64,000 nt of DNA. Source: Lophium mytilinum. Taxonomy: Eukaryota. Shown piece after piece: positions 4,686 to 55,700 of the stretch. Both the position numbers and the translations under genes were made by a program. The notes below the pieces were generated by a model. It saw nothing but the letters and a program-made list of their open reading frames with translations. It made no database searches and had not been told where the DNA came from. The first letter of the stretch is position 1. Every line of letters begins with the position of its first letter. The stretch covers positions 1,302,001 through 1,366,000 of the forward strand of contig MU004197.1 in the NCBI GenBank assembly GCA_010093605.1. The letters are read 5' to 3'.

Positions 4686-6955
4686 ATGCTGTGCGACAAA
4701 TGTATCAACATCCACTTCAAGCGGATCGAGGAGTGTGACTTGATTCGAGAAGAGCCTGATCGGCTGCTAGGGACGGACTCTGTCAACATATTCCATTGTG
4801 TGTTCTACTTCCATCACAGAAACAGACATGACCTGGAGAAATCTGCCGATCGAGGCTGCCACTTCTGTGGTATGCTTTGGGGTAGACTACTTGGAGGGGA
4901 TGGCAATGGTCTGGTGTCCAACTACCGCTTTGCTCGCGGCGAGGTGATACTGCGCCGTTCTATTGTAGAGAAGTGGATTGATGATAAGTCTGGCACTGGG
5001 CTACATGGTTGGAATATAGGTGACTGGATCTATATTCAATGCGAGGAACAAAACTTCACAACGACGAATTCCGAAACGTATTCAGGTATGTGGCAGATTG
5101 GGCCTCTGTGTGGTCGCTTCTTAACTTATTACTCACTATTCTAGGTCCTGTAGCTGTAATGCTCGAGGCTCTAACGTCTTGCAGAGACATAGAGTCCTTT
5201 GGTCCATCGACGGGGGTTGCTCCGACCCTCTTGGACGACCATGAACTTCAAAATATCAGTTCAGAGCTTATCCCCTCGCAAGACTCAAGCATTTATTCAC
5301 CCTGGCTTGACTTATCAACCGCGTCACCTGCTAGTATGGCACTCGCATCTGTTTGGCTCCGGAACTGCCTCGAAAACCACTTACCTTGCAGTAATGCTCA
5401 AGGCGAGGGTACATTACCGCGACGCATTATCGATATCAGCTCTCCCCAGCATCCCTTTCTTGATGACGGAAATAGTAGAAAGGGCTCGTATCTGACATTG
5501 AGCTATAAATGGGGGGAGAGTCACCGATACGTGACAACGACGGAGACCGAGGGTAAACACCGAAAAGAAGTACCGCTGAAGGAGCTTCCTTGGACATTTA
5601 AGGAGGCCATACACGTGGCTGATAGTCTTGGGTTCCGTTGGATCTGGATAGATGCGCTTTGCATTCTCCAAGACTCCAAGGAAGACCAGCGCCGAGAGAT
5701 AGGGCTCATGGATCAAATATTCCGTTGGTCTACCCTAACTTTATATGCGGCTGCTGGTAACAACGCAGATGCTGGAATATCAGTAAATCGAGATCCACGA
5801 TGCGTCAAACCTTGTTGCCTGCCTCTGAAAACGACACTCGACGGCAAGACGGCCTCGGGTAAAAGCTACACTATGCTCGATAGTGGTAGAGCAGATACAC
5901 CATTGTTCGACCGCGGATGGGTTTTACAAGAAGAAGTCCTCGCACCTCGAGGGCTTATATTCGGAGAGCGTGAACTAGAGTGGCGCTGTCTATGCGGAAA
6001 CTCTTCTGAAAGTCGTCCGATCTACAAGCACCGCGTGGAAAGATGGCAAGATCTAGGGAATGAACAGTACAAAAAGTGGCGGTCATACTCCTCAGGAAAG
6101 GACGGATTTGACACGCTTCGTATGTGGCTCCATGAGAAAGACCCAGTTCCGGACCGGACACCATGGCAGCGAGATAATCAATTTGATCTCTGGTACACCT
6201 TAGTGAAAGAGTATAGCCAGCGATCTCTTACATACCCTTCGGATGTCCTTCCAGCCCTTTCCGGCCTCGCGAATGCCCTGGCAAAGACGCACGGCTGCAC
6301 CTACGTGGCAGGTCTATGGAAAGAGGACCTACAAATTGGTTTGATCTGGTACGTATCAGGTCGGCGTTACTATTATCAGCCTCCATTAAAGGACCATCCC
6401 GATGATGGGAACATGACTCTTCCATCCTGGTCTTGGGCTTCACAGTGGGGAAAGGCCATCAGCTTCCGAAATTGGCAGAACAATAATACCCAGGTTGTAC
6501 CGGACGGTATGCAATTGTACAGCGGCTTTCCATACATCCGACCACTTCGAGAAGGAAGCGTTAATGCAACGAAAAGTCTGATTGTGACTGCTCGTGTCAG
6601 AACGGCAGTGGTCTACCAGACGACAAACATCGAGTATAATGATCGAGAGGACGCATGCTGGATCGCAGGCATCAAGGATCCAGTCTCCGGAGACGAGATT
6701 GGCCAGATAGCATTGGACTCTGACCCTTCCCAAGTGCCAGTACGACTAGTTTACTGTCTTCTTTGCACTGTCCGAGAGAAGTACGGCGAGTGGCACCTCA
6801 CTGGCGTTGGACTCGTCCCTACGGACGAGTCGTTTGAAGAGTTTACGAGAGTTGGCCTGGCTTTTGTGCGCAAAAAGGGATGGTTTGGCCATTTAGATAT
6901 GGGGTTTGAAAGGTCTAGGGATAGTAGGTATCTGAGAACAGTGCGAATGGTCTAA
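4686..6955 (+). CDS. HET (heterokaryon incompatibility) domain protein; exons 4686-5085 and 5145-6955
   Basis: HET motifs YLTLSYKWG, WIWIDALCILQD, RGWVLQE and DVLPALSGLA; N-terminal MLCDKC...GCHFC; GTATGT...TAG intron joins the two ORFs in frame. Confidence 0.93.
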
Positions 6956-8585: not shown

Positions 8586-10779
8586 TCACGCCGGTGTCAG
8601 CGTGACCGGTGTTCTTCCTTCAACGTGAACCGAGATGTGAATGTTTCCGGAAGAGTCCGCAGTAGCTTCTTGCTTGCCATAAGTGTACTTCCGGCCCGGC
8701 TCTAATCGACTGACCCCCAAAGTGAAGTCGCCTGCGGCGGCAGACGGGTAGAGGACAAGCTCGAGGTCCTTGCTGGTGTGCGAACGAGCCTTTGCAACTA
8801 GAACTCCCGGATACGGAACCTGGGATAGGATAGGCCCAGCGAGTGCTGTTTTGGAAGGACCCTGGAACATCATTGTCAGCGACGTCGAAGTTAAAGGAAG
8901 TTGGATGCACATACCTCTCGAACCAAATTTAGCCAGTCATTGCGACGAAGCAGAGTGCCCTTTAGTCTAGCCATGTTATAAAAGAAGGAACCTAATTTCG
9001 CGCGTCTGGCACCAGTGCTCGTCGTTTCAAGACCGACGTGATCATTGATATACTTCAGCGCCGCAACTCTGACTTTCTCGTCTCCGAATTCCGCAGCGAC
9101 ATATGCGACGTGAGGGTAGATAGCGTGCTTCCCAGTCTCGTAGTTCCCGGTATCCAAGTTATCCGCTCCGCTCAGACCAACGAAACTAAGTTCCTTAGTG
9201 ACTTCGTCGTAGCGAAGACATTCGCCTTTGAAAAGCGCATACGACTGTTCAGCCAGTTGAGGAAGATAGCCGCGGGTGATGACGCCGTTGCTAAGATCAA
9301 TCAGTGCACCTGTCAGACCGGGGATCGTGAATCCAGTTATAGCGGAGCGAATGGGGAGAATGCTCCCGGACTTATCGGCGAAATTCGACATGAGCGACTC
9401 CAGGAACCGGGGCTTGATATCTTCAGCATGCTTTGTACCAAACACCCGATCGTAGACGACCTGGCCAGTCATGCCGATGAAGTTACAAGGCGTGTAGATC
9501 CAGTTTGGCTCGCAGGGGAACAGGCAGTACGGATTGCTGGTCCACTGGTCTACTAGCGCCTTGCCCATCGAATGAACGTCGTGGCGGTAGGAAATTTTAT
9601 CGGTGATCTCAAATTTTAGGCAGCCGGGCTTGGTATATTGCAGGTCTCCGGTGTTGGCGGTGTACAGCATTATAGCCTGTTGGAGGAAGCCGGTGACCAT
9701 GATGTTGTCTCGGACTACTGGATCGTAGTCGGTGGTGAATTTGCCCCAAAGGGATTCCCACTTCCAGAAACCCATGACAGGCTTCGTCAAGGACTTGGCG
9801 ATGACATTCTGGATCCCTTCGCTCAAGTAGCCGTGGAAATTCGGAGTGTATATCCCTTGGTAGGTGCTTAGATTGTAGATCATGTCGTAGAGTTGATAAC
9901 GAAGTGCGGAGGTTTGGAACTGGTCGATGTAGGTGAAGTTTAGCCAATCACTGACATCAAGTCGTGTTTGATCAATGGCATATTGGACGTCCCGGAGTTC
10001 GTCCAAAGTAAGCTCTCGCTCTGAGGCTGGCGGTGCTAGAACTGCGGTGGTTTGGATCTCATTGAGCACTGTAGGCAGATACTCGTTTCGCTTGACGCGT
10101 TTCTCCTCGCCTTCTTTCCGTTCGATCCCATTTTTGTATCTGAGATAGAAGACCAGGGCTCCAAGAAGCACCACGGAGACTCTGTCGCTATACTCGAAGA
10201 CGCTCTGGCCTGCTGCGAAGTAGGCGCCGACTACGCTGAGCGTCCAAACAAGTATTGGGAACAAAAAGCCACCGGCTCCGAACCACTGCAAGACTTAGCA
10301 AATTTTCGCGTAATTGCAACACGAGAAATGGTTATAACTAACCGCAAACATCGCTGCCGGTAATGATAACCAGGTGACAATGAAAGCGACGGCCCCCGTG
10401 ATATTGGCACACGCAATGTATCCAGCGCCGGGGAAGATTAATCCTACGGCAGCCGCTCTAAGCCCAGATGAGACGGGAACTATATTCTGATGGAATAGAG
10501 TTAGGCTGATGGCCGTAAGGGTCGCCCACTGAACCATGGTTCGATTCTGGAAACGCTTGCTTGTAACGTTGGCTCCGAGGGTTGGTGGAATGAAAGAGGG
10601 AGTTACTGGAGATGCAATATCAGAAATTCGGTCCCTCAATCCTTGATGGAATCATTTTCGGTAGACATACCATCGGCCTGAGGTGCAGCCTTGTGAGCAC
10701 TGCCATTGCTGGCTTTGGTTTTGCCGTTCATATTGTTGGTGGAGGTTGGGACGATTGTATTCTTGGCGGCAATCATCAT
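8586..10779 (-). CDS. Linalool dehydratase/isomerase (Ldi)-like protein with N-terminal transmembrane region, about 4 exons
   Basis: Motifs DQFQTSALRYQL, DPVVRDNIMVTG and FPCEPNWIYTPCN; introns 10670-10606 and 8914-8862 (plus one near 10.3 kb) join the ORFs; hydrophobic N-terminal segments. Confidence 0.8.
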
Positions 10780-32096: not shown

Positions 32097-34074
32097 TCAT
32101 TGCCGCGTTGTATATTCGTAATCCTTTTGTAGTGGCACCACAACCCCTTGATAAAACCGTTCTCTGAAATGGTCGTCTGTAAGGCTATACGAAGAGCTGT
32201 CGAAGTTGCAGTGGATACATCTGTGGACTGCGTCAAAGTAATTAGCGAGCTCGCGGTCGCGAAGTGCGTCCGCAAGGCGGCCGGCGACAGAGAACTCGGT
32301 CCAAACGGTGCGCTTCCCATCATCATCCCAGTCCTCAGTAGTTTCAAACGCGGAAGTAGGCTTGCCATAGGAGATCTCCAGTAAAGCTACACCAAGGGCG
32401 AAGATGATACTGTTCTTCACGAAACAAAGTCTCTTACGGTGCGGAGGCGTGGAGTCTGGTGTAGGTTTGAAACTCTTCGACACGTATGGCTGATCGGAAA
32501 GCAGTGCATTATTGGAGTTTTCGACAACATATATATCCTTCATGGTCCATGTTTCGCTTAGCCAAGGCGTTCCGTGGAGCTGGAGGACAGCGGTAGCCAG
32601 TGTGAGCGCAATTCTGCACCTGCTGAGATATTAGTGGGTGATCGACAGCCGAACTTACTATGCTTACTTCTCTTTAATCTGAAATCCATTTCGGGATTGG
32701 CCATGAAGTACTTCTTCGAGCGACACAGTCTTGCCTGCCGTTCTACTTGGTATTGGTAACGTGATTGAGTGGATGTGATGTTTTGTCGCAGCATCGCTTA
32801 GAATCCCCAGACAACACATGCCTTGCGCGTGGCCTTTCAAAGCCTTGCAGAGGTCATCAATCTTAGGTGCCGTTAGTGCGCATTTCTGCCAAAGTGTGTG
32901 TCGCTGTGGAGCCGGTGGCAAGACAAATGTGGGAGTTTTCGAAGCTCGTGGTGCTGTCCTGCTAGTGATGCATTAGCGATCTTGTAAATCCTTATATATA
33001 ACTCTTAGAAGAAGGTCGCTAGTTATTTCACGCACGGAACTTTGGTACCGTCTCATAGACCAAGGTCGTTTAGAGTTGGTGCCCAGAGGAAATGGGCAAG
33101 GCTTACGGATGATGATACTCGTCTCCTTCTGGCTCTATTTCTACAGCGCGCCAATGCCATGGGAGGGCTGTAGGACGTGCAGATACTTCAAATGAGAATA
33201 AGAATCTAAATGTGCTCCATTGTTCGATTCCGCGTTCTTTTCGCAGGTCGAGCCGCAGATTGGCCTGATGAAGATGCTGGCAAGCGCATTGAGGAGACCA
33301 TCGGGTAAAGAAGCTGTTATACAATGCCTCGGCCTGCGTACGCAGGCTGTTCCAGTACTTAGAGTTTGCTTTGCGTTTTCGTTCGAATCGAAGAGGTTCG
33401 AGGGCAATCGCGCCTGCTGTTAGGATAGATATCCGGCTGATATTGGTATCAATTTCGGACAGCAACAGCTTGTACTTGTCCGCACTGAATCCACCTCTTA
33501 CTCGCGTCAATGGATTTTTGAAGAAGTCTTCGCGGGCTCTCACATCGACGATGTTGTTCTGGTCAATCCATTGTGGCTAAGAGGCTTTAGTCCAGAGCGT
33601 CACTGGTAGCACAATGAATGCACTAACCTTGAAGTTTTGCTTTAACCTCAGCTTCTGGCCAAAAAGGACGACTCTTTTATTGAGCTGTTTTACTGAAGTT
33701 CTGAACGGCAAGTAGTTGGAGCCGAGCCGTTCTCGAAGTCGTTCGCTGAGACCAACATCCTCCCAGGCACTGCCATCAATCTTTTCGAGTAATTCATAGA
33801 GCTGAGAGTCCGGCAGAGCAAGGGGACCGAGCAACTCTTCGCAAGAGTTCCGGTATATCGATAGGCTAGTAATAAGAGACACATGAAGGTCATCAAACAC
33901 CCCTTCGTACTTTTTCATGCTCTTTATTGTCGCGACCTATGTCTCCGTCAGCCTTGCACCCCAAGATCAGCATTACTGAGAAGCAGTGATTACCCCATCG
34001 GCATAATGTTCTAGAGCACTAATTATTAGCGGAATCGACCCCAGCACAGCTCCTGCAATCTCGAAGCCAGACAT
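32097..34074 (-). CDS. HeLo-like N-terminal domain plus DUF7580-type (kinase-like) C-terminal domain protein, multi-exon
   Basis: N-terminus MSGFEIAGAVLGSIPLIISALEHYADG; LATAVLQLHGTPWL, IFALGVALLEISYG, YFDAVHRCI and FYQGVVVPL; GT-AG introns link ORFs 33577-33918, 33103-33543, 32664-32921 and 32097-32543. Confidence 0.82.
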
Positions 34075-34320
34075 GTTGGGCGCTAACAGTGTGAATAGAG
34101 AAGAAGGTAAGTTGGTAGGAGAAAAAGCATGGGGTCAGTATTCTATGGCCCGTGCGTGCGGGGCCTGGGGGCCATTTCACTGCCCTGCTGCACGCACCCT
34201 TCAAGTCTAACCTTGGGAACTGCATCTTCATCACATCGACATCGTGGTCACGTCAGATATACACCAACGCAGGGGAGAATATGGGTAAAGGTGTCTCCTG
34301 AGTCTTTTCTTTTAGCCGCC

Positions 34321-37300
34321 ATGGAAGGGTCCATCGCTGAATCGCACACTGTATGCCTTGATTTATTCGCAGCCTTGCTGAGCGTCATCAAACAGCATTC
34401 TACAAGTCATGCACTACTCGAGACTGATATTCAAGATGAATTCGACAAGTATAGTATGTGGGCGGGAAATGTCGGTGCTGCCTTCTCCGGACAGAACTAC
34501 AAGCGTTCCTTAGATTATCGGCTTAGAGAAGCTTCCTTTTACAAGGAGCAGGTATGTGAATTATCTCAAATCTCAAATCTTTTCGTTTCGGCCATCTTAG
34601 CTCATATCAACTTCTTTACTCTTCATCCTTGCTGCACTTCAACTCGGTTAGGGCCGCCAATATTCGTGACTGGATTACTCGAGGTACCGCCGATAGTATT
34701 CAGCCTTGGCGAGTAGAGGCCAGACGTTCCAGGCTCTGGATAGAGACTAACGATCAAACCTTGGACTTAGGTATTGAAGCTCTTGGAGAGTCTGCGTGGA
34801 GTGGTGAGTAATCGTCTGCATACACATGCAAACCTTCATGAAATGACCGTCGCTGAATCAAAGAACGAACTAGATTCACAAAGGTATTTGTCCCTGGCGG
34901 CCGTTTCCACGATTAGTGTACATATTGCTGACACACAAGCACAGCGGTGTCTATTCTCAACGGCAACAAAGTACCATTTGATGAATTATCGGAGTCTGAA
35001 TCAGACACGCTTGCCGATGACCAAAGTGGGGAGGACTCTCCTTGGGAGATATCCTCCAGCTCGGAGGAAGAGGACATGGACGTCGTAAAAGAACATCCGC
35101 CAGCGCCAAAAATTTCTCGTTCGAGCGTCATCAAGCTAGAACAGACCGTCGCTCCCTCCTCGCTGCCCGGAACACAAACAGAATTACGCCAATTGATGCA
35201 ATCAGTCAGCTTTACCGTTACATGTCTTTGGCGGATTCCTATTCGTAGACCTGCTCCGATCGATCGAATCAAGGATAAAAGTGCAGCCGAGACGTCGTAT
35301 TATCAACCGTTCGATATCTTGTACGTGAAGGATAAATTACCATTCGTTGATGAGAGCGTCGCAAATCGTCTTGGCAAGTTGATATCGAAACGACGTCAGA
35401 TAATGCAATACCGCAAGGGCCATACCGATGCATTGCAATCTATTACCATTGAGCCTAGGCACACGGCAGAGCGACGCGTTGCCGAGTTAGGTGGTACGAC
35501 TAGTGTAGGAGATTTAACGGCGCCTTCAAAGAGCGCGCCAAGTCGTCAGACACAAGAGGAAAAGGCCACGACTTTGAGACTGCCTCGAAACGAAATGGAG
35601 CTCCAAGATGTATCTCGACTTTATGCACCTTCGATGCCCGAGTCAAGGACCACGGCGGCTTCCGACCAGGCCGCAAATACGGAGCGAGTCATTATTCCGC
35701 CACGGCCTGTTGGGAAGAACGGCAAGCCTCTCGAGCAGTTCGTATGTCCTTATTGTTCCGTGACTCAGATCATCAAGTCCGAACGGAGTTGGAAGTAAGT
35801 TGAAGCGACCAGCATAGAGTTAGGTATCAATTAACTGTTTCAGAAAACACGTCTTGGAAGATTTGCAGCCCTACGCCTGCACTTACCCAGCATGTGAGCT
35901 ACAGGAGTACTTATTCGAAAACAGAGAGGAGTGGAACAATCACGAGACACAGCATCACCGACTCGAGTGGAGCTGCAATACCCAAGATCACCAATGCTTC
36001 GTAGAACTTCCTAGCTTCCTGGAGCATATGGCAGGAATCCATGACAGTTCTTTGAACGAACGCCAGATTCAAGCTTCGCGAGGTATGTTCCAGCGCCCGG
36101 TTCAAAGCCATTCGGGTGTGTGCACGCTTTGTCACAAGCAAGCGACTAAACTGAAGATTCACGTGTCTCGTCATTTGGAACAAATGTCTCTATTTGCTAT
36201 ACCACCCGCAGACATGATGAAAGACCTCGACTCGGACATTTCCGGGTCTGGTCTTTCACATCGAAACATCAATGGTTCCAAATCTAAGAAAGCCTTGTCC
36301 AGAGGATCAGGAAGCCTCTCGCGCATTTCCGATGATGTAGTCTCTCATGATGACGCTGGCACACTTGCGCATCCGCCAAATGGACATTGGGAACATGTCC
36401 AATGGACCCATAGATCTTTTGAGGAATGCCGGGCACTCGGACTAAAACCTCAGTGGGAGAAACTGATGCAAGCAACATTTCCGAAAGAAGTTGGGATGCT
36501 TGTGGTCGAGAAAGTGTTTCCAGCGAGGCCTATGGAGATCGATCTTACAGCGGGCGACATGCTAATCACGGTCAACAAAACACTAGTCGCAACCATCGAC
36601 CGCCTAAATCAGATCTTAGATGATAACGTCGACGGAAAATTTCCCGCGTTGGTTCAAAGGGGTCGCGAGGACGTTAACCTTGATGGTCGGGGACTTGAAA
36701 TCGTTACCAAGTCGGCAGACGACCTAGACATTAAGCAGACGTCCGTTCCTGATATGGACGTGGACGAGAGCACTTTGGACAACTCTTGGGACCATATCAC
36801 TCCAAAATTCCGAGAAGCACGTGCTGCGATGTATCCCGAACTACTCGCACAGCCACCTGTTTCGGCTGAGCAAGCTCTTGAAGGGGTAACAGGCCCTAGA
36901 TTGATGCTGCCCCAGATTCTCACCTACTCACCACGGCAAGGCCAAGCTGGGGACAACTTCTCCCTTGAATTAGGAAGTCAAGTCGACATTCTTGGAAATG
37001 TATTGCCGTCTGCTCCGTACGGTAAGAGATTAGACACCATAATACTGCAAACCTCTCCCTCCGCCAACAATGCGCCGTCGCCAAACGAGCGACCGCGACT
37101 TAGGACTGGCTTCAACGGCCAACTGCTAGCTAAGGCCCAAGCATTTGCCTCATCCATGTCGCCTTCAGATGGTCAAGCCGCGACATCCCCTCCAGGCCAG
37201 TCACCGGGGGATCAAGCTCTCCAGGACTACCGGGAGCAGCTCAAGCTCCTAGACCAGGAGAACAAGAAGCGCCTTGTGATAGCTCGCCAAGAGCAAGACA

Positions 37301-40213
37301 GCATAGCCCAACCCCCTTCTGGCCAACCGTTGGCTAATGCCCAAGAATTCGGCTCATCTATGTTGCCTTCAGATAGTCAAGCCGGAATATCACCCAATCC
37401 GAACGACCTGATGAGCAGTCCGCCCGGTCTCTCTGAGTCTCCCATGGCTGACGTCATGCAGGACAGCCGTCGCCCTCGGAGAGCAGCAGCTCCGACGTTT
37501 GGCGCGGAGAGTGAGGGCTCCTCGGTTTCCCCGGTTTCCCACCCAATCCGGAAATCAGGTATAACAGCTCCTGTGTATGGCTCGGAGAGTGAGCAGGACT
37601 GGACCTCCCCTGGCTACAATTCAGAGATAAGGTACACTATAATCTTCGGAAGGGAAGCAATACTACCTGTCGTAGTTCCCCTGTCCGAGGTTCAAGACCA
37701 CTCTCTGCCATTCTCATTCTCACTGCACACCGAAGTGCCTAGTGGAGAGATGAATGAGTGGAGCTATGACCTAAGTGGAACAAAAAAGAGTAGTTCAGTG
37801 CACGTGCAACTACGACTTGAGCGAAACATGTCTGACGGATCTACTTTGCTTGAGCATGTTGATGTCGGTGACTTCGAGTATGTGGAGACAGTAAAGAGTT
37901 CGGAGGCGCAAGCAGACGAAGACCCCAAAATCAAGCCAAAACTAGATATCACGCCTTCAGATCGAGACCACTACCAGCAGAGACCAGTTTGTGGAGCCTC
38001 GATTGGTGCATATCGAGACGGCCTACATCTTCCACCAGCTACATTCGGCGGCATTGTTCTCGTTGATGGCAAGCATTATGGCTTAAGCGTCCATCATATG
38101 CTTGAAGTACCTTCGGACGATGAAGAAAGTGATGATGGCGAGCCTGATGATTCAGGTGGCGATCCTGTTCGCGATCCGTCGGCTCACAAAGGAGAGCATG
38201 CACCAGTGAGGAGTACTGCGCGCAAAGCAAAAGGGAAGTCCGTAGTGGTCTCGGCTGGTCTTGACCTTATACATGGCAAATTATATGAAGTGGACGCTAC
38301 CTGGACTAAGATCGACCGCCGTCTCGTCAATGCAGAAGCTCTTGAAGAGGCACAGGAGCCGTTTGAGGAGCGCGAAGACTCGTTAGACTCTTTATATGTG
38401 TTAAGAGTATTAACAAAGAAGGAAATACAGAAGCTGGCTGATCGAACCAAGCGAATAAGGGATAAGAGATCTCGCGACGAGCATAACATTGCAGAGTTAT
38501 CGAAAAACCCACCCTCGGGAGAACCTGAAGACAACTCAAACGCCCGTGAACAACGCCCCGCGAGTGAACCACGTATAACTCACGATCACCCCGGCTCTTC
38601 TGGTGCATATGGCCGTGACGACTATAATAGCTATTCGGACGACGACATGGAAGTCAGATCATCATTCGAGGGTGGCGAGTTTCGCGAAATCATTGGTACC
38701 GTTGGTGACGTTGAGGGTATTCGACCGGGTAAGGGGGAACAGATCATCATCACACAACCCGCAATTGATGATGTTGCGGAAGACCTTTTTCCAAGCTTAG
38801 ATGACAGAGACGAAGATCACTTGCACTCCCACGCCCTTGGCCATGTCTATGCATCATCGGGAATTCGTCGGTTGCGCCGCAGAGGGATCCTCCATGAGAT
38901 AGATTGGGCTCTGATCAAGATCGTCGATGAGCGTTTGGCTCCATGGAACGTGGTTCACGGCGGTGGACAGTTTTGCATCGACGCTGCAACCGCTGCCAGA
39001 CAGGACTCGCCGCGCGTCAAGCGGGAACCCGATTGGCATGACTACTATAAGAACGGCCTCCCAAAAGAAGTCATTGTTATTGACGATGACGACGACGAAA
39101 CTTCACCTAGCCAGCACGACCAACCCGAAATGAACCGACACGCCATCGCGAAGGCCGTTGAAGACATTCCCGGAAAACTTCCGCAGCCTCTAATCGCCCA
39201 CTTACTCACCATAGATCAAGTAGAACGGGCCTTGGAATGGTGAGTAAACGTTCTTTTCGGCAATACTCTGCTAATGCTCTCAATAGGTTACGTACTTGCT
39301 TTGAACCAGACTCATCATGCAAAGTTAGTTTGATAGCGCTAGAGAACGCGTATATGACGACTTTCGAGTTCGATTTAATAAAACACTGGTGGATGGAGAT
39401 TGACACAATGAAACACTGGTTCAGGGGGCTCCCAAACGAGGAATTTTACGGCGTGTTCCCGACAGCCTCCATCACGACATATCCAGAAGCAGAGGCAAAG
39501 AAGAATTCGATCCACGGCATTCGGCCACGCAAAGATGATTACCCAGTTGAAGTTGCCAGAGCAGACGAACTTGCAGATCGGAAAGTCCATTGGTATGGCC
39601 GAACCTCAGGCTTGCAAAGCGGAGTAATTTCATCTACTATGCGTCAAGTGCGGTTCTACGGCCGTGAAACGTTCGCTGCTCTCTGGAGTGTCAGTGGCGG
39701 AGGTACGTGTGTCTTCGTCCAGTGGTCTTTCTTAGCAACACAGCAATTTTCGGGCAGTCCTTCTGCCCTTAACGTGCTAACTTGGAAATAGCAAAAGGAG
39801 GCGACACAGGTGCTTGGGTCATCGATGACCGTAGTCGTGTTTGTGGCTACCTAATTGCCACCAGTGAGGCCAAGCAGGTTGCTTACATGTGCCCGATGGA
39901 GGTGGTCATGGAAGACATCAAGCAGACGCTCGGTGCAGAATCAGTGTGTCTGCCCGGGTCGGCTGAGGCCAAAGAGAGGCTCGAACGGAAGTTTCCGGCC
40001 CAAGTACCTCGTCCTCTGTTCCCACTTGGAGCCAAGGTGCAACTCAGAATAACCAACAACCACCTGATGAACGCCTGTATCACTGACCGCAGGTGGAGTC
40101 CAGGGCTTCCGTGGGAGTACCAAGTGAGGCCAACCAGAGATGATGTCAACCAAGACAATGTTGAGGAGCATGGGGAATGGTTTGATCAGAGTCGGATTGT
40201 GAAGAGAAAGTAA
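34321..40213 (+). CDS. Large mosaic protein (roughly 1800 aa): N-terminal helical domain, C2H2 fingers, several foreign fragments, trypsin-like domain and C-terminal SH3/Tudor-like domain
   Basis: MWAGNVGA...SLDYRLRE; FVCPYC...WK|KHVLEDLQPYACTYPAC; GASIG...VHHML...DWALI...GRTSG...GDTGAW; introns from 34552, near 35796-35843, 39240-39286 and 39703-39791 join the ORFs; the micro-exons near 34.77-34.95 kb are uncertain. Confidence 0.82.
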
Positions 40214-40688
40214 GAAAGCAAATGATCGGTGGAATGAGATTTCTCGCACGGTGATTCATAAGAAGACCGATACACGAAAAGCCTTTGGAGTCCGTGGAGG
40301 CTGAAAGTCACACTTGGATTAGCCACTCCAATTTTCGACTTCTAGAACGATGATGGGAATAACGAAGCCATTGCCAGATGGAAAGGCAGTTCTCACTAGA
40401 GATCAGAGGGACCAGACAATCCAACAGCCAAAGAGTTAGATAACAAGACGCAATGCCTGGATATATTCAGCAGCAATAACACAGCCTACTCAACCCACAT
40501 CTTTTCCGTACCTCCACACGCTCTCTCAAATGCCGGCTTACACGCCCACATGAATCGCAAATCGCTGAAACGCAGCTCAAGCCCAAACTCCGAGATCAAC
40601 ACCCCATCTCAGCCCTCTTAAATCCCTCTAATATACAGCACCTAACACCCTCAACCCCAGACGAGGCCCAAACCCGGAGGTAGCCCCC

Positions 40689-41835
40689 CTACCTATCCCC
40701 CCCACTAAAACTGTACCCCGGCGCCGGCGGCGCCGGTCTCCTGTACTCCTCATAACCCCCGGGACTTAGCGCACTCGTGTGCTCGTCGTGATCATAGCGG
40801 TATTCGGGCACCGGATCATGGGGGTTCTCGCCCCAGCTGAGCGGCCGGCCGGGGTGTCTCCCTTCGTCTGTATCCGTGCTATGCAACAACGCGTATTCAT
40901 CCTCTTCCTGGTTCCCACCGCGCTCCGTCCGTGTCTCGTCATCCGAGTCGTTGAGCTCGTGGGTATCCGCGCTCCAGGTGTTGTCCTTGACGCCGTGCTC
41001 GAGGGAGGAGTCGCCGCCCGAGGCGTGCGGGGAGGGCTTAGAGGAGGCGTAGGGCATGACGCCGTCTTTGCGGAATTTGACGACGTAGTAGGCGGATATT
41101 GCGGTTGTGATTACGAAGAGGAGCCTGTGGAAGGAGAAGCGTCAGCTGTGGGTTTTCTTTTGGAGGAAATGGGAAGAGGGGTGTACCATATCACGACGCC
41201 GAAACCGAATGTTGCGCGGCTTAGCTTGCATTTCGCCTCGTTGCCGTAGGCGAAGGTGGTGCAGTTCCCGTCGTTTTGGTCGAGCTTTTTGTCTTTGGCG
41301 CCCTGGCGGATGCCGCGGCTGTTGTAGAGGGCGATGGCGATGAAGGCGGAGAACCAGAATACTGTGGTTGAAACGTGTCAGAACTGATTCCAAGTAGTGT
41401 GTTCAAGCATTGGCTAGAGAAGTAGACATTGTTCTTTCTTGGGAGAGCCAAGGGAGGGGAAAGGTGCAACTAGGGAAGCCTACTCGTATATAGCGCATCT
41501 ACCGCAACAAATGCATATGCGTTCGCAAACCTCGCCGCTCTCGACCACATAGGCACCATAACGAGGTATACCAGCGCGGGAATTGTCAGAAAACACTATT
41601 CGTTCAGCCCCAACTGTCAGCCTGATGCTCAAAAGTCCCAGATTGTCCCAGCACCCTCCCCTCTTGGGACACCAGAGGTTCTTACCAGTGCAAAATACCA
41701 GTCTGTAGCACCACCATTTGTCCCGTCTTTAGTCAAGACGGAAATGGTGATACATGCCGCAATGAAGATCAGCAGGATCTGGAAGATGTGCGCAACGACT
41801 TTGCATTTCTGGATATAGCTCTGCGGGACCTGCAT
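40689..41835 (-). CDS. MARVEL-domain membrane protein, multi-exon
   Basis: Four hydrophobic helices (HIFQILLIFIAACITISVL; CFLTIPALVYLVMVP; FWFSAFIAIA; LFVITTAI) and an acidic/Pro-rich tail. Confidence 0.8.
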
Positions 41836-52794: not shown

Positions 52795-55700
52795 TCAGAT
52801 TTCGAAAGGATCATAATTGAATGACCACATATCTCCGAGCGTCCAGTCATCCATCAAGTCAAAGCCATCTAACAGCCCAGGAACGGGATCCTGCTGCGGG
52901 TGGAACGGAGTCATTGCGGCAATAGGGACATTCAGCGGCGGCCTCGAGACGTTGTCTTGCATTGCAAGGACCTTGTAATAGAGCTTTGATACCCGATCTG
53001 TGGCTTGCAGCTCATAGGTGCTCGCTTGCTCGGGGTTGGTGCGAATTTGTACAAGGCTGAATGCTGCACTGACGAACCAGAACATATGAAAGCCGCGACC
53101 GGGGCGCATGGCGCGTTCTTCGAGGATGCGGAATGATTTGTCCATCGCTTCAACGAAGAGAGTCGTCAAAGTGCGAGAGAAAGTATTGACTGGACACGTT
53201 AGCATACATTTCTGGACAGCTTAGGTTGGCTCGCAACGGTATAATATTGGCGCTCGTCTAACCACTCATACGGCGCGGTAGAATTCATTGCACAGCGGCC
53301 TGACTCGAAAGGACTCAAGGTTGACGACTCCAAGGAAAGTGAATCCCCTGCACCACTGACTCTTCGGCGACACTGCCAGAAAGAACATGATAGACACCTT
53401 ACACAAGTGGAAAAAGCTGGCCACTAGCGCGATTGAGGTCATTCTACACAGGAAGAATGACGAGTACGCTCAAAGAGGCAACGGAAAAGCTAGAACTCAC
53501 CCGGTCCGAAACTGTCCTTGAATGACATCTGGCAAAGCAGAAGACTCGCACGCACATGATCCTGTCGCATCAAACACAACGCAAAGTTTCTGCGATCGAC
53601 AAGTCGCATATGTCCTTCCAGCATCGCGACGCACGCGTCCAAGCAAACAGTGCGCGAGTATCGATTTCGAGAGTACGCCTCGGGGTCCTGCTGTACGAAT
53701 GAGCTGTAGAGCATCGTTAGGAACTGTCTGAGCTGAACGTCGAGCAGCGTGCGTGCTTGGAGAGCGCGTGGTTCCTCCCATTTTGGAATGGTTCCTAAGG
53801 CATCCGTAATTCGTTGTTCGTGTTGCAGCAGCTCCTCGAAACTGGCCCGACAGTCTTGATCCTGGACGACAGAGGAGAGCTTCACTCTTGATAGCAATGT
53901 CCGAGATGAGAGATAGAGGTAGGAGGCATCTGTGAACTCGTCTTGAGGCCTTGACTGCGGAAGCGCTGCATCGTTCTCGCTGAGGTCTTGATCGTTGATG
54001 TTTGATGGGGGTGGGCAATCGTAAAGAACGGCAGATAGCATAGAAGCCGTACCCCGATCAAGTGACGCTTGTAGTTCTAGCTCCATAGTAGTGGCCCACA
54101 TCCGCCGTCGCATCTCAGCTTCGAACGGTGTGCATCGACCAACCAAGAGACTCGGGTTTCGGTGCATTCCCGCGGACTTCATGTAGATTAGGAGACCTTC
54201 TACTTGCACGTAGCACTCCTTCGTCTTCAGGCAATTGACCGACGCTGCTATGACTCGTAAAATACGAATCTGGTACGTCGCAAGCGTTCGGTGCTTGTTG
54301 CTTTGGGCCCTGATCCACGCATCGCAGGCAAAGATCCATGTCGTTGCTTGTTCGCGACACATTGAGCCATTAGGCGTAAAGCGTATGGGTTCTTCTGGCG
54401 ACGCGCAAAGAACGCATGCCATAAGCAAGAGTAGTAAGGCAAGAAATTCCGACTTGATGCTGGGGCTCTTGGGGTCATCCCAAAATGCAGCATATTGGGC
54501 CCAGAAAGTGGGTGCGTGCAGAATACGAAAGGTTGTTTCGAATGTGTCAAAGTAGGTTTTACAAAGAATGTCTGTTTTAGGGCGTGATGGCATCAATTCG
54601 AGCAACTTGGCGCAGGGAGGGGTACTCCACGCGGAGGGGTCCTGGCGAACCAGAGTCCCTAGGGCCCTGCACTCGTGCTGAAGGCGCTGGAGCGTGGAGT
54701 TTGGATATATATCTTTCATGAAGATCCTCACTTCAGGAAACTGTCATGGAAGTCAGCTGTTTTGAACACTCGGGGTAAAGTGATTGCCCGCCTCGGCCAT
54801 GGGCAGATCAATGTGTATAGATAACGAATGTAAGAATTGCAACAGATCCTCTCAACCCTTCGAGGCGCCACAAGAAAAATTTGATATTGTTTGCACAGGT
54901 TGAAACTCACATGAGTAAGGATACTGAGAGGGCTACTGGATCCGTAGAATTGCGTCTTATAGCCGCGACCCTTGAAGAAACCGTCGTCTAACGACTTTGT
55001 TGCTTGGAATTTCTGTTCATACTCGTCGACTGGGTAGGAGCGATCTAGGCCGAGTGATCCGTCGTTGACGGGCAATCGACTTTCCAGGGCCGCAAGACGT
55101 GCTTCTAATTCATATGTTCTTTCGCCTTTTCCCCCGGAATAGTCATCTTGTTTATCCTCGGAGAAACCTAGTTCCACCGGTTTTCCACGAATCGGTGCGG
55201 TGCCACTCTTTTTGGTTGGTCGCGCACTCTCGGGGTTCTATAGAACGTGGTTAGTAAAATTCTTAGACACCGCTTGGTCATAAGTGCATCCAAGCTGAGC
55301 TTTTACAATCTAGGGCTTCAGACTTTACGATTACTTTTGCGTAAGCGATGGGACGTCTTTGAAGAGGCCTTGTGGGGAAACGGCTGTTCAATTCGACATG
55401 GCTCAGAGCAATGAAGGTTTGACGTGGTGCTCAAATGTACAGAGATCCACACCCGCCATTAACACTCTCTTTGCTATAGCATAAGGTTGCCCTGAGACGA
55501 ACTTGCCCAATTGGCGCGAAGCCTTCGAGCCACCTCACATGGCGGCAAGAACAGCGTATCATATGAAACAGTACTCACAGTTTCCCGTTCATCTACGTCT
55601 TCACCAGACTCTCGCGCCTCTCCATCAACATGAGATATCTCATGCCAATTATAAGCGCAAGTCCCCGCAATGCCCCCTTTGATACAGCGGTCACATGGTT

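Follow-up and report, generated by a model that had tools for sequence, protein, structure and literature searches.

A transcribed mosaic gene of Lophium mytilinum with fragments of unrelated genes set into a zinc-finger/protease-fold backbone

Chimeric genes and domain shuffling are well known, and in plants gene fragments are captured by Pack-MULE and Helitron elements. The subject here is a gene of the wood fungus Lophium mytilinum, found at 34321..40213 (+ strand) of a 64,000-nucleotide stretch of its genome (assembly GCA_010093605.1, contig MU004197.1, positions 1,302,001 to 1,366,000 of the forward strand; "the window" below, numbered from its first letter). This "mosaic" gene is a real, transcribed, spliced and lineage-specific chimera, in which chimeric gene formation and domain insertion are unusually dense and are documented in the transcript as well. 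Three or more fragments of unrelated conserved genes are confirmed in it (four with a PDZ-like piece), and two of these sit in loops of an enzyme fold, which is unusual for a single expressed gene. It probably arose as copied fragments were inserted one after another, in frame, into disordered loops that tolerate them, with the frame kept by selection, and its product would now be a putative protease-fold scaffold.

The mosaic gene resembles the Pack-MULE and Helitron captures in that fragments of host genes have been copied to new loci, and differs from them in that no transposon ends or repeats flank its pieces, which are translated in frame within a host gene. The same likeness and the same differences extend to the transduplication of gene fragments by transposons in Pyrenophora tritici-repentis, a Dothideomycete (PMC3538342). 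Another possible parallel is the integrated decoy, which in fungi has so far only been proposed, for nucleotide-binding leucine-rich-repeat receptors (NLRs) of Sordariales (PMC12258605). A literature search, judged by titles and the opening of abstracts, found no published description of the mosaic gene, of DUF8035 (a domain resembled by one of its pieces) or of the protease-domain family to which its backbone belongs.

Transcript and gene structure

A word-indexed search of 5.8 billion proteins gives a 100% match to the L. mytilinum protein P0001, hypothetical protein BU16DRAFT_159462 of 1650 residues. Its UniRef label is "PDZ domain-containing protein", and its precomputed Pfam matches are PF26082 (AcuF-type C2H2 zinc finger) and PF26118 (DUF8035). 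When P0001 is searched against the window with tblastn, four exons are recovered between 35076 and 40210. Contigs from three sequencing runs extend this model. Two runs (X1 and X2), probably from the assembly's own sample and hence not independent of it, provide DNA contigs that were compared with the assembly over 33800-40700; the third (X3) comes from another study, and its RNA label is a guess, yet its contigs are spliced. Because they skip introns at 34552-34770, 34804-34873, 34884-34944, 35795-35843, 39240-39286 and 39703-39791, all of them GT..AG, the contigs of this third run represent spliced RNA.

The coding region is thereby divided into seven exons (34321-34551, 34771-34803, 34874-34883, 34945-35794, 35844-39239, 39287-39702 and 39792-40213), which join into a single open frame of 1785 codons plus a stop, with its start at 34321. 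The public model begins at 35076 and is corrected by the addition of 135 N-terminal residues (MEGSIAESH...) that it lacks. Among the exons added by the RNA contigs upstream of the P0001 start (34219-35075) is a micro-exon of 10 nucleotides, 34874-34883. Between 33800 and 40700 zero differing letters and zero indels are reported for the DNA and RNA contigs relative to the assembly, and all junctions between pieces lie inside one DNA contig and one RNA contig, with the exception of 37461-37514, which is considered below. The 3' RNA contig continues for 1037 nucleotides beyond 40700 at a mean depth of 219, versus 32 in the 5' contig, and may be merged with a neighbouring transcript.

An earlier reading of the DNA, made from sequence only, had described one continuous frame at 36385-40213, a span equal to P0001 residues 421-1650. 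The long stop-free frame is there, at 35824-39243 (1139 codons, with local similarities to several protein families); the span as described crosses the introns at 39240-39286 and 39703-39791, and the gene starts upstream of it, at 34321. Residue numbers below are those of P0001, and all features of the mosaic gene lie on the + strand.

The backbone and the pieces inserted into it

The N-terminal part of the backbone is an AcuF-type C2H2 zinc-finger region (35793..36267; residues 240-381; precomputed PF26082) that is 43-45% identical by blastp to P0002, P0003 and P0004, the only relatives with the zinc finger as well as the protease domain, in the same order. Further on lies a backbone linker motif, NSWDHITPKFREARAAMY (36778..36906; residues 552-594), for which blastp gives 46-47% identity with P0002 and P0004. 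Its TSWDFVTPKFREARAAMY motif is complete in these two proteins, and only the first part is found in P0003. In P0002 and P0004 the linker motif is followed by about 12-16 unaligned residues and then by the protease domain.

A blastp comparison of P0001 with the 94 other matches of the word-indexed search, together with an alignment of 60 domain sequences, delimits three protease blocks common to P0001 and 59 relatives, about 60 fungal proteins in all. Block 1 (37969..38169; residues 949-1015) is defined by the alignments and by a predicted local distance difference test score (pLDDT) above 90, and has an invariant His-His pair (SVHHML; codons 38092-38097). Block 2 (38695..38994; residues 1191-1290), defined by alignment and the AlphaFold2 model, has an invariant Asp (HEIDW; codon 38902-38904). 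Block 3 (39522..39985; residues 1451-1575) is interrupted by the intron at 39703-39791 and reads GGDTGAW at its motif, against GDSGAW in relatives. The nucleophile position is thus Thr here (ACA, codon 39806-39808, with the same letters in the DNA and RNA contigs), versus Ser in 45 of the 46 relatives that bear the motif and Ala in P0005. The His, the Asp and the oxyanion-region glycines are intact in the mosaic's domain, so that the predicted catalytic triad appears incomplete in one respect, the replacement of Ser by Thr. In chymotrypsin-type enzymes Thr is a poor stand-in for the nucleophile Ser.

An AlphaFold2 model based on a 44-sequence alignment has pLDDT above 90 in all three blocks. 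Foldseek with this model returns 43 PDB matches at E<=0.001 (probability 1.00, E down to 4e-5, alignments spanning 103-153 columns), and the matches listed are all chymotrypsin-fold proteases, including Streptomyces griseus protease A (SGPA), Deg/HtrA, alpha-lytic protease and NAL1. From the model, the domain is predicted to have the clan PA (chymotrypsin-like, double beta-barrel) fold, and the label "trypsin-like" given to it earlier is correct for fold and motif order. No Pfam match to a curated protease family (Trypsin, Trypsin_2 or Peptidase_S1-type) is obtained at E<=10 for P0001 or the domains of 8 relatives, and a domain-only profile of the family has no match in PDB sequences or Pfam. 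The profile of a fuller alignment was also run against PDB sequences, and was discarded because its matches were dominated by the kinase-like part of the relatives. What emerges is an uncharacterised chymotrypsin-fold domain family recognised by no curated model. The mosaic domain is like clan PA proteases of the HtrA/Deg and alpha-lytic/SGPA types in predicted fold and in the order His, Asp, G-D-x-G; it is unlike them in lacking any sequence-level match in Pfam or PDB, in having two very long loop insertions, and in its Thr for Ser.

Both of the loops that join the blocks are expanded. The His-Asp loop (loop 1) has 216 residues versus 95-149 in relatives (n=59), the Asp-Ser loop (loop 2) has 214 versus 39-81 (n=54), and by alignment the inserted pieces are absent from 59 of 59 relatives. 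The inserts fall in regions that the AlphaFold2 model predicts as disordered, with pLDDT below 50. The DUF8035-like piece (38236..38475; residues 1038-1117; precomputed PF26118) lies in loop 1, which is acidic. DUF8035 proteins (n=33), which themselves carry precomputed PF26118 matches, match P0001 at residues 1047-1117, inside the piece, and at no other part; the alignment with the piece has 59-76% identity and a 3-residue insertion in the mosaic. The core motif WTKIDRRLVNPEALEEA..FEER..VLRVLTK.EIQKLADRTK.IR is mostly retained (60-76% identity) and its flanks have diverged. A helix is predicted with confidence over the C-terminal part of the piece and on past its end, at residues 1098-1127 (model 159-188), where pLDDT in 10-residue blocks from model position 161 is 93, 93 and 88.

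Loop 2 contains an N-terminal motif of LAMMER kinases of the Lkh1/Kns1 type, PDWHDYYKNGLPKEVIVIDDDDDE (39013..39153; residues 1299-1343), which matches residues 92-143 of P0094 with 30 of 52 positions identical (E 8.3e-5 in a search of the whole database). P0094 itself has a kinase domain with the EHLAMME motif, and its best matches are CLK1 and CLK2 (E about 4e-92). The mosaic shares the N-terminal motif of P0094 alone; a Pfam scan finds no kinase domain in the mosaic. The term "Lkh1-like" is thus apt, for a short N-terminal motif rather than a domain. A VIVIDDDD stretch presumably resembles a SUMO-interaction motif. The remainder of the loop 2 insertion is orphan piece C (39154..39521; residues 1344-1450), which contains the intron at 39240-39286, is modelled as low-confidence helices, and has no Pfam match to an RFX-like or other domain; four PDB-sequence matches to it, all weak (E 0.15 to 1.3), were rejected.

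Block alignment, fold model and loop lengths agree in placing the DUF8035-like and Lkh1-like pieces inside the trypsin-like domain, as the sequence-only reading had proposed. Since both lie within loops of the protease fold, they are insertions and not end-to-end fusions, and its argument from nesting against simple gene fusion is borne out for these two pieces.

The largest expansion is a lineage-specific insertion of 354 residues (36907..37968; residues 595-948) between the linker motif and block 1, at a site where P0002 has 12 residues. It consists of orphan flank A (36907-37047; residues 595-641), a Som1/Flo8-like piece of 138 residues (37048..37461; residues about 642-782), and orphan flank B (37462-37968; residues 780-948), which is beta-rich with a small tandem repeat. 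The proteins that match residues 642-782 are LisH proteins named "cAMP-dependent protein kinase pathway protein" or "LisH domain-containing", names that fit the Som1/Flo8/SomA regulators as described in PMC4631450. The best match (E 1.8e-17) is Lophium's own LisH protein, P0103, which is 57% identical to the mosaic over 147 columns. The piece follows P0103 collinearly in two stretches, 226-250 and 363-461, and lacks the roughly 110 residues between them. No counterpart of the N-terminal LisH (LUFS) domain of Som1 orthologues is present in the mosaic, and 21 of the 28 residues of the central motif ALQDYQMQLMLLEQQNKKRL.MARQEQD, flanked by Pro/Ser-rich segments, are kept. A 74-nucleotide in-frame duplication (37117-37190 and 37321-37394, 81% identical) also lies within the piece; it is one of two small direct duplications in the 354-residue insertion, one of which flanks the core motif.

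In a maximum-likelihood tree of the mosaic and 32 Som1 orthologues (148 columns), the mosaic and the Lophium proteins P0103 and P0104 are split from the 30 other orthologues with an ultrafast bootstrap (UFBoot) value of 99. The mosaic branch has 0.96 substitutions per site, versus 0.0003 for P0103 and 0.038 for P0104, and alignment reveals states common to the mosaic and the Lophium Som1 (SANNAPSPN and NAQ.F). The best match, the collinearity, the grouping and these common states show that the fragment is a copy, made inside the Lophium lineage, of part of its Som1 gene, and that it has evolved very fast since. The origin from a host gene proposed by the earlier reading is thus upheld for this piece. 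Homology to Som1 is confined to the fragment, and the mosaic protein is not a member of the Som1 family.

The same reading had placed the Som1 piece inside a "MedA-like domain". It does lie inside a larger insertion with flanks on both sides, but those flanks have no detectable fungal relative: phmmer of residues 776-948 against 1.84 billion representatives recovers, apart from the query protein, just two bacterial proteins made of repeats (FN3 and DUF11 arrays, rejected as chance, repeat-inflated matches), and word-based searches of residues 421-948 and 595-948, the only searches that cover flank A (595-641), find Som1-like proteins alone. With no MedA donor found in these searches, which included no direct comparison with a MedA sequence, the nesting of Som1 in a MedA domain cannot be upheld. 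An Atlas search with residues 790-948 returns unnamed clusters only (0.75-0.77), and phmmer finds no match at E<=1 among the collected proteins for any orphan piece, for the PDZ-like piece, or for the N region or C tail.

In the disordered linker that follows the zinc finger there is also a weakly supported PDZ-like piece (36385..36714; residues 421-530), absent from P0002 and P0004. PDZ_6 matches it at E 0.063 with 13.5 bits, versus a cutoff of 27, and the DegP PDZ at E 0.29; by Atlas features, all ten of the top-scoring named clusters are PDZ (0.90-0.93), two of them with PF12812 PDZ_1. The sequence-only reading had begun its mosaic at 36385 and had given this first piece no such label, which on these weak scores is proposed here. 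A single-sequence AlphaFold2 model of residues 410-950 has a mean pLDDT of 41, too poor for a judgement on the PDZ fold or on whether flanks A and B form one unit.

The relatives show how the backbone looks when these pieces are absent. P0002-P0004, unnamed metagenome or assembly proteins, share with the mosaic the zinc finger, the linker motif, the protease blocks and their order, and differ from it in having no PDZ, Som1, DUF8035 or LAMMER pieces. P0003 has a repetitive, disordered expansion of its own (residues about 230-490) in the same linker as the mosaic's 354-residue insertion, and from the sequences this site seems expansion-prone across the zinc-finger/protease subfamily. The predicted C-termini of P0002 and P0004 (..GGCKICPANLKF.) end exactly at the position of the mosaic's intron 39703-39791; both models have probably run on into a conserved intron and been cut short. 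Among the 59 relatives, most are about 1100-1600 residues long, with HeLo, DUF7580 and weak kinase matches, and two have GTPase-like N-termini. The HeLo/DUF7580/protease fusions (P0007-P0061, from Dothideomycetes and other Ascomycota) are like the mosaic in their C-terminal protease domain, with blocks 44-77% identical, and in the long acidic loop after the His block; unlike the mosaic, they have HeLo and DUF7580 in place of the zinc finger at the N-terminus, and they keep the nucleophile Ser.

Serial insertion and its alternatives

In the mechanism proposed, the starting point would have been a backbone of AcuF-type zinc finger, disordered linker and chymotrypsin-fold domain with long variable loops between its blocks. 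DNA copied from other genes would have been inserted in frame, on several occasions, at disordered and insertion-tolerant sites, possibly via ectopic, template-copying DNA repair or recombination. The inserted set would comprise the PDZ-like piece, the 354-residue block with its fragment of the lineage's own Som1/Flo8 gene, the DUF8035 core, and the LAMMER motif with its orphan piece. The frame would have been retained because the downstream protease blocks need translating. The product may be a protease-fold scaffold with little or no activity, on which short interaction motifs from nuclear regulators are presented. It would probably act with a DUF7580 protein encoded next to it, and its gene family is linked to cell-death modules of the HeLo and kinase-like types.

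Chance does not account for an open frame of 1785 codons in which six introns are correctly spliced, and frame-breaking changes have been removed during the evolution of the gene. When the 138-codon Som1 piece was allowed to diverge without constraint to an identity of 0.57 (2000 trials; substitutions only, indels not counted), it remained stop-free in about 3-5% of trials. The pieces lie upstream of or inside conserved blocks, so that selection on the protease blocks downstream would by itself be expected to retain the frame. The earlier claim that a preserved frame implies selection therefore holds for the translation of those blocks, as the simulation indicates, and does not carry over to the inserts themselves. 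Only for the DUF8035 core, with its diverged flanks, does the pattern suggest that the inserted piece is constrained in its own right. The capture of host gene fragments one by one and in frame, as first described, likewise applies to the traceable pieces and leaves out the MedA donor and the orphans; and of the "at least five unrelated conserved fungal proteins" once listed, Som1, DUF8035, the Lkh1-type motif and the trypsin-like fold are recovered and MedA is not.

Several observations weigh against serial insertion of copied fragments with a kept frame. Within a 28-residue motif that is invariant in at least 29 of the 32 aligned orthologue rows, the Som1 piece differs at 7 positions, and these changes, together with the branch of 0.96, would fit relaxed constraint as well as new function. 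About 320 residues of insert (orphans A, B and C) have no detected donor, so that copying from other genes is shown for part of the inserts only. The PDZ evidence is weak and falls beneath curated cutoffs, and the LAMMER match depends on one protein, P0094, and about 45 residues. Repeat analysis reveals no terminal repeats, target-site duplications or transposon remnants at the piece junctions, and thus nothing at the junctions points to a mechanism. Finally, the contigs do not independently bridge 37461-37514.

Many of the same facts would be accommodated if the gene were a neutral patchwork, dispensable and fast-evolving, in which templated insertions accumulate in tolerant loops, the pieces have no function, the protease is dead and the whole is heading for decay. 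Such a course is possible but unlikely. The very long branch of the Som1 piece, a Thr where 45 of 46 relatives have Ser, the confinement of the inserts to predicted disorder, the comparable repetitive expansion of P0003 at the same linker and the retention of the pieces in no orthologue are all what it would predict, whereas decay is difficult to reconcile with 1785 codons open across six correctly spliced introns, with the rarity of stop-free outcomes for an unconstrained Som1 piece, with a DUF8035 core that keeps most of its conserved positions between diverged flanks, and with the intact His, Asp and oxyanion-region glycines. It is quite improbable that the gene is instead an ordinary old multidomain protein, assembled long ago by shuffling of mobile modules (PDZ, DUF8035, short motifs) that the supposed donors merely share. 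DUF8035 does occur both with Myb and without it, thus in two architectures or more; PDZ domains are common and mobile, and the protease domain itself is joined to zinc-finger, GTPase-like or HeLo/kinase-like N-termini. However, the Som1 piece carries states that it shares with no Som1 but that of the Lophium lineage, with which it groups at UFBoot 99, and none of the 59 relatives has any piece in these loops. Nor has a collinear orthologue been found, the evidence that the sequence-only reading had named as contrary to its own: there is none among the 95 matches, of which the best non-self match covers 31% of the query, and a metagenome scan with P0002 gave six loci, all of the long fused type and none with the zinc finger or the mosaic.

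The remaining alternative is an artefact, in which two loci are joined at a repeat or exons of different genes are merged, and it concerns the stretch of 54 nucleotides at 37461..37514 (encoding DSRRPRRAAAPTFGAESE) that is near-identical, with 2 mismatches, to another locus of the same genome. This is the sole break in the contigs of all three runs, where it is represented by a unitig of 41 nucleotides at about 1.6-2.2 times the flanking depth. Loose contig ends at the break run to the other locus, and both continuations are open in the same frame over the 10 codons seen. Depth and loose ends together indicate that the stretch is also present at a second genomic place; no second copy exists in the 64-kb window. 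That every DNA and RNA contig breaks here, with alternative continuations both open in frame, would fit a false join. Against this, the repeat is below ordinary read length, the zinc finger and linker to its left and the protease to its right co-occur in P0002-P0004, and DNA depth is alike on the two sides (162 and 175, 121 and 130). The right flank also has a diverged second copy of the motif: a second direct duplication, 37487-37515 and 37565-37593, is in frame and 83% identical, with the diverged copy 78 nucleotides downstream. Each of the other junctions is contained in one DNA contig and one RNA contig, and no letter differs there. A short repeat, both sides joined in relatives and the downstream copy together make a chimera scarcely credible. 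The assembly chimera that the earlier reading had set down for checking by read mapping is thus opposed by contigs that match the assembly at all junctions, with the proviso that 37461-37514 is not bridged. If the locus is sound, the 54-nucleotide tract could be a recent gene conversion or a donor trace, and its near-identity suggests that ectopic exchange is continuing.

The head-to-head neighbour and possible roles

Head to head with the mosaic gene, and divergent from it, is a gene on the - strand (32097..34094) with a DUF7580 domain (PF24476, E 3.7e-24), whose RNA contig ends at 34094, about 125 bp from the first base of the mosaic RNA contig at 34219. In relatives of roughly 1400 residues DUF7580 and the protease domain are fused in one protein, and for that reason the locus looks like a split version of the DUF7580-protease fusion. 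The arrangement suggests that the two genes act together. When the relatives are searched against the neighbour gene with tblastn, only matches of E 0.07 or worse are found. Elsewhere in the window are open reading frames for a HET-domain protein (5024-6955, + strand, E 3.3e-28), a linalool dehydratase/isomerase-like protein (8891-10294, - strand, E 1.7e-87) and a protein with a fungal transcription-factor domain (53490-54743, - strand).

A role as a bait or adaptor scaffold would be speculative. Its boldest form, for the present highly doubtful and drawn by analogy, is that of a "bait array". The mosaic protein would be an attenuated protease-fold sensor in a cell-death-linked family, its loop fragments (Som1/Flo8, LAMMER, DUF8035 and an Nma111-type PDZ) would serve as decoys for antagonist molecules that target those regulators, and signalling would proceed via the DUF7580 partner. 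The antagonists might be mycoparasites, viruses or incompatible self. Like the integrated decoys of plant NLRs and the putative ones of Sordariales (PMC12258605), the mosaic has duplicated host-protein fragments in a fast-evolving, cell-death-linked family, and the head-to-head gene pair is reminiscent of NLR sensor/helper pairs. Unlike NLR decoys, it has no NB-ARC or NACHT domain by Pfam on P0001 or the upstream exons, it has several fragments rather than one domain, these are sited in a protease fold, and any relation to pathogen targets would be conjectural. If true, the bait array would be a counterpart, with several decoys and no dependence on NLRs, to the integrated-decoy receptors of plants.

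The meaning of the mosaic gene turns on the status of its pieces. If they are neutral, the gene would be a clean natural record of repeated templated insertions and of their in-frame survival, useful for the study of how coding novelty arises from ectopic DNA repair in fungi. If they are functional, it would represent a natural grafting of new interaction surfaces onto a stable fold, and it could be the first multi-fragment, decoy-like protein in a cell-death-linked fungal gene family.

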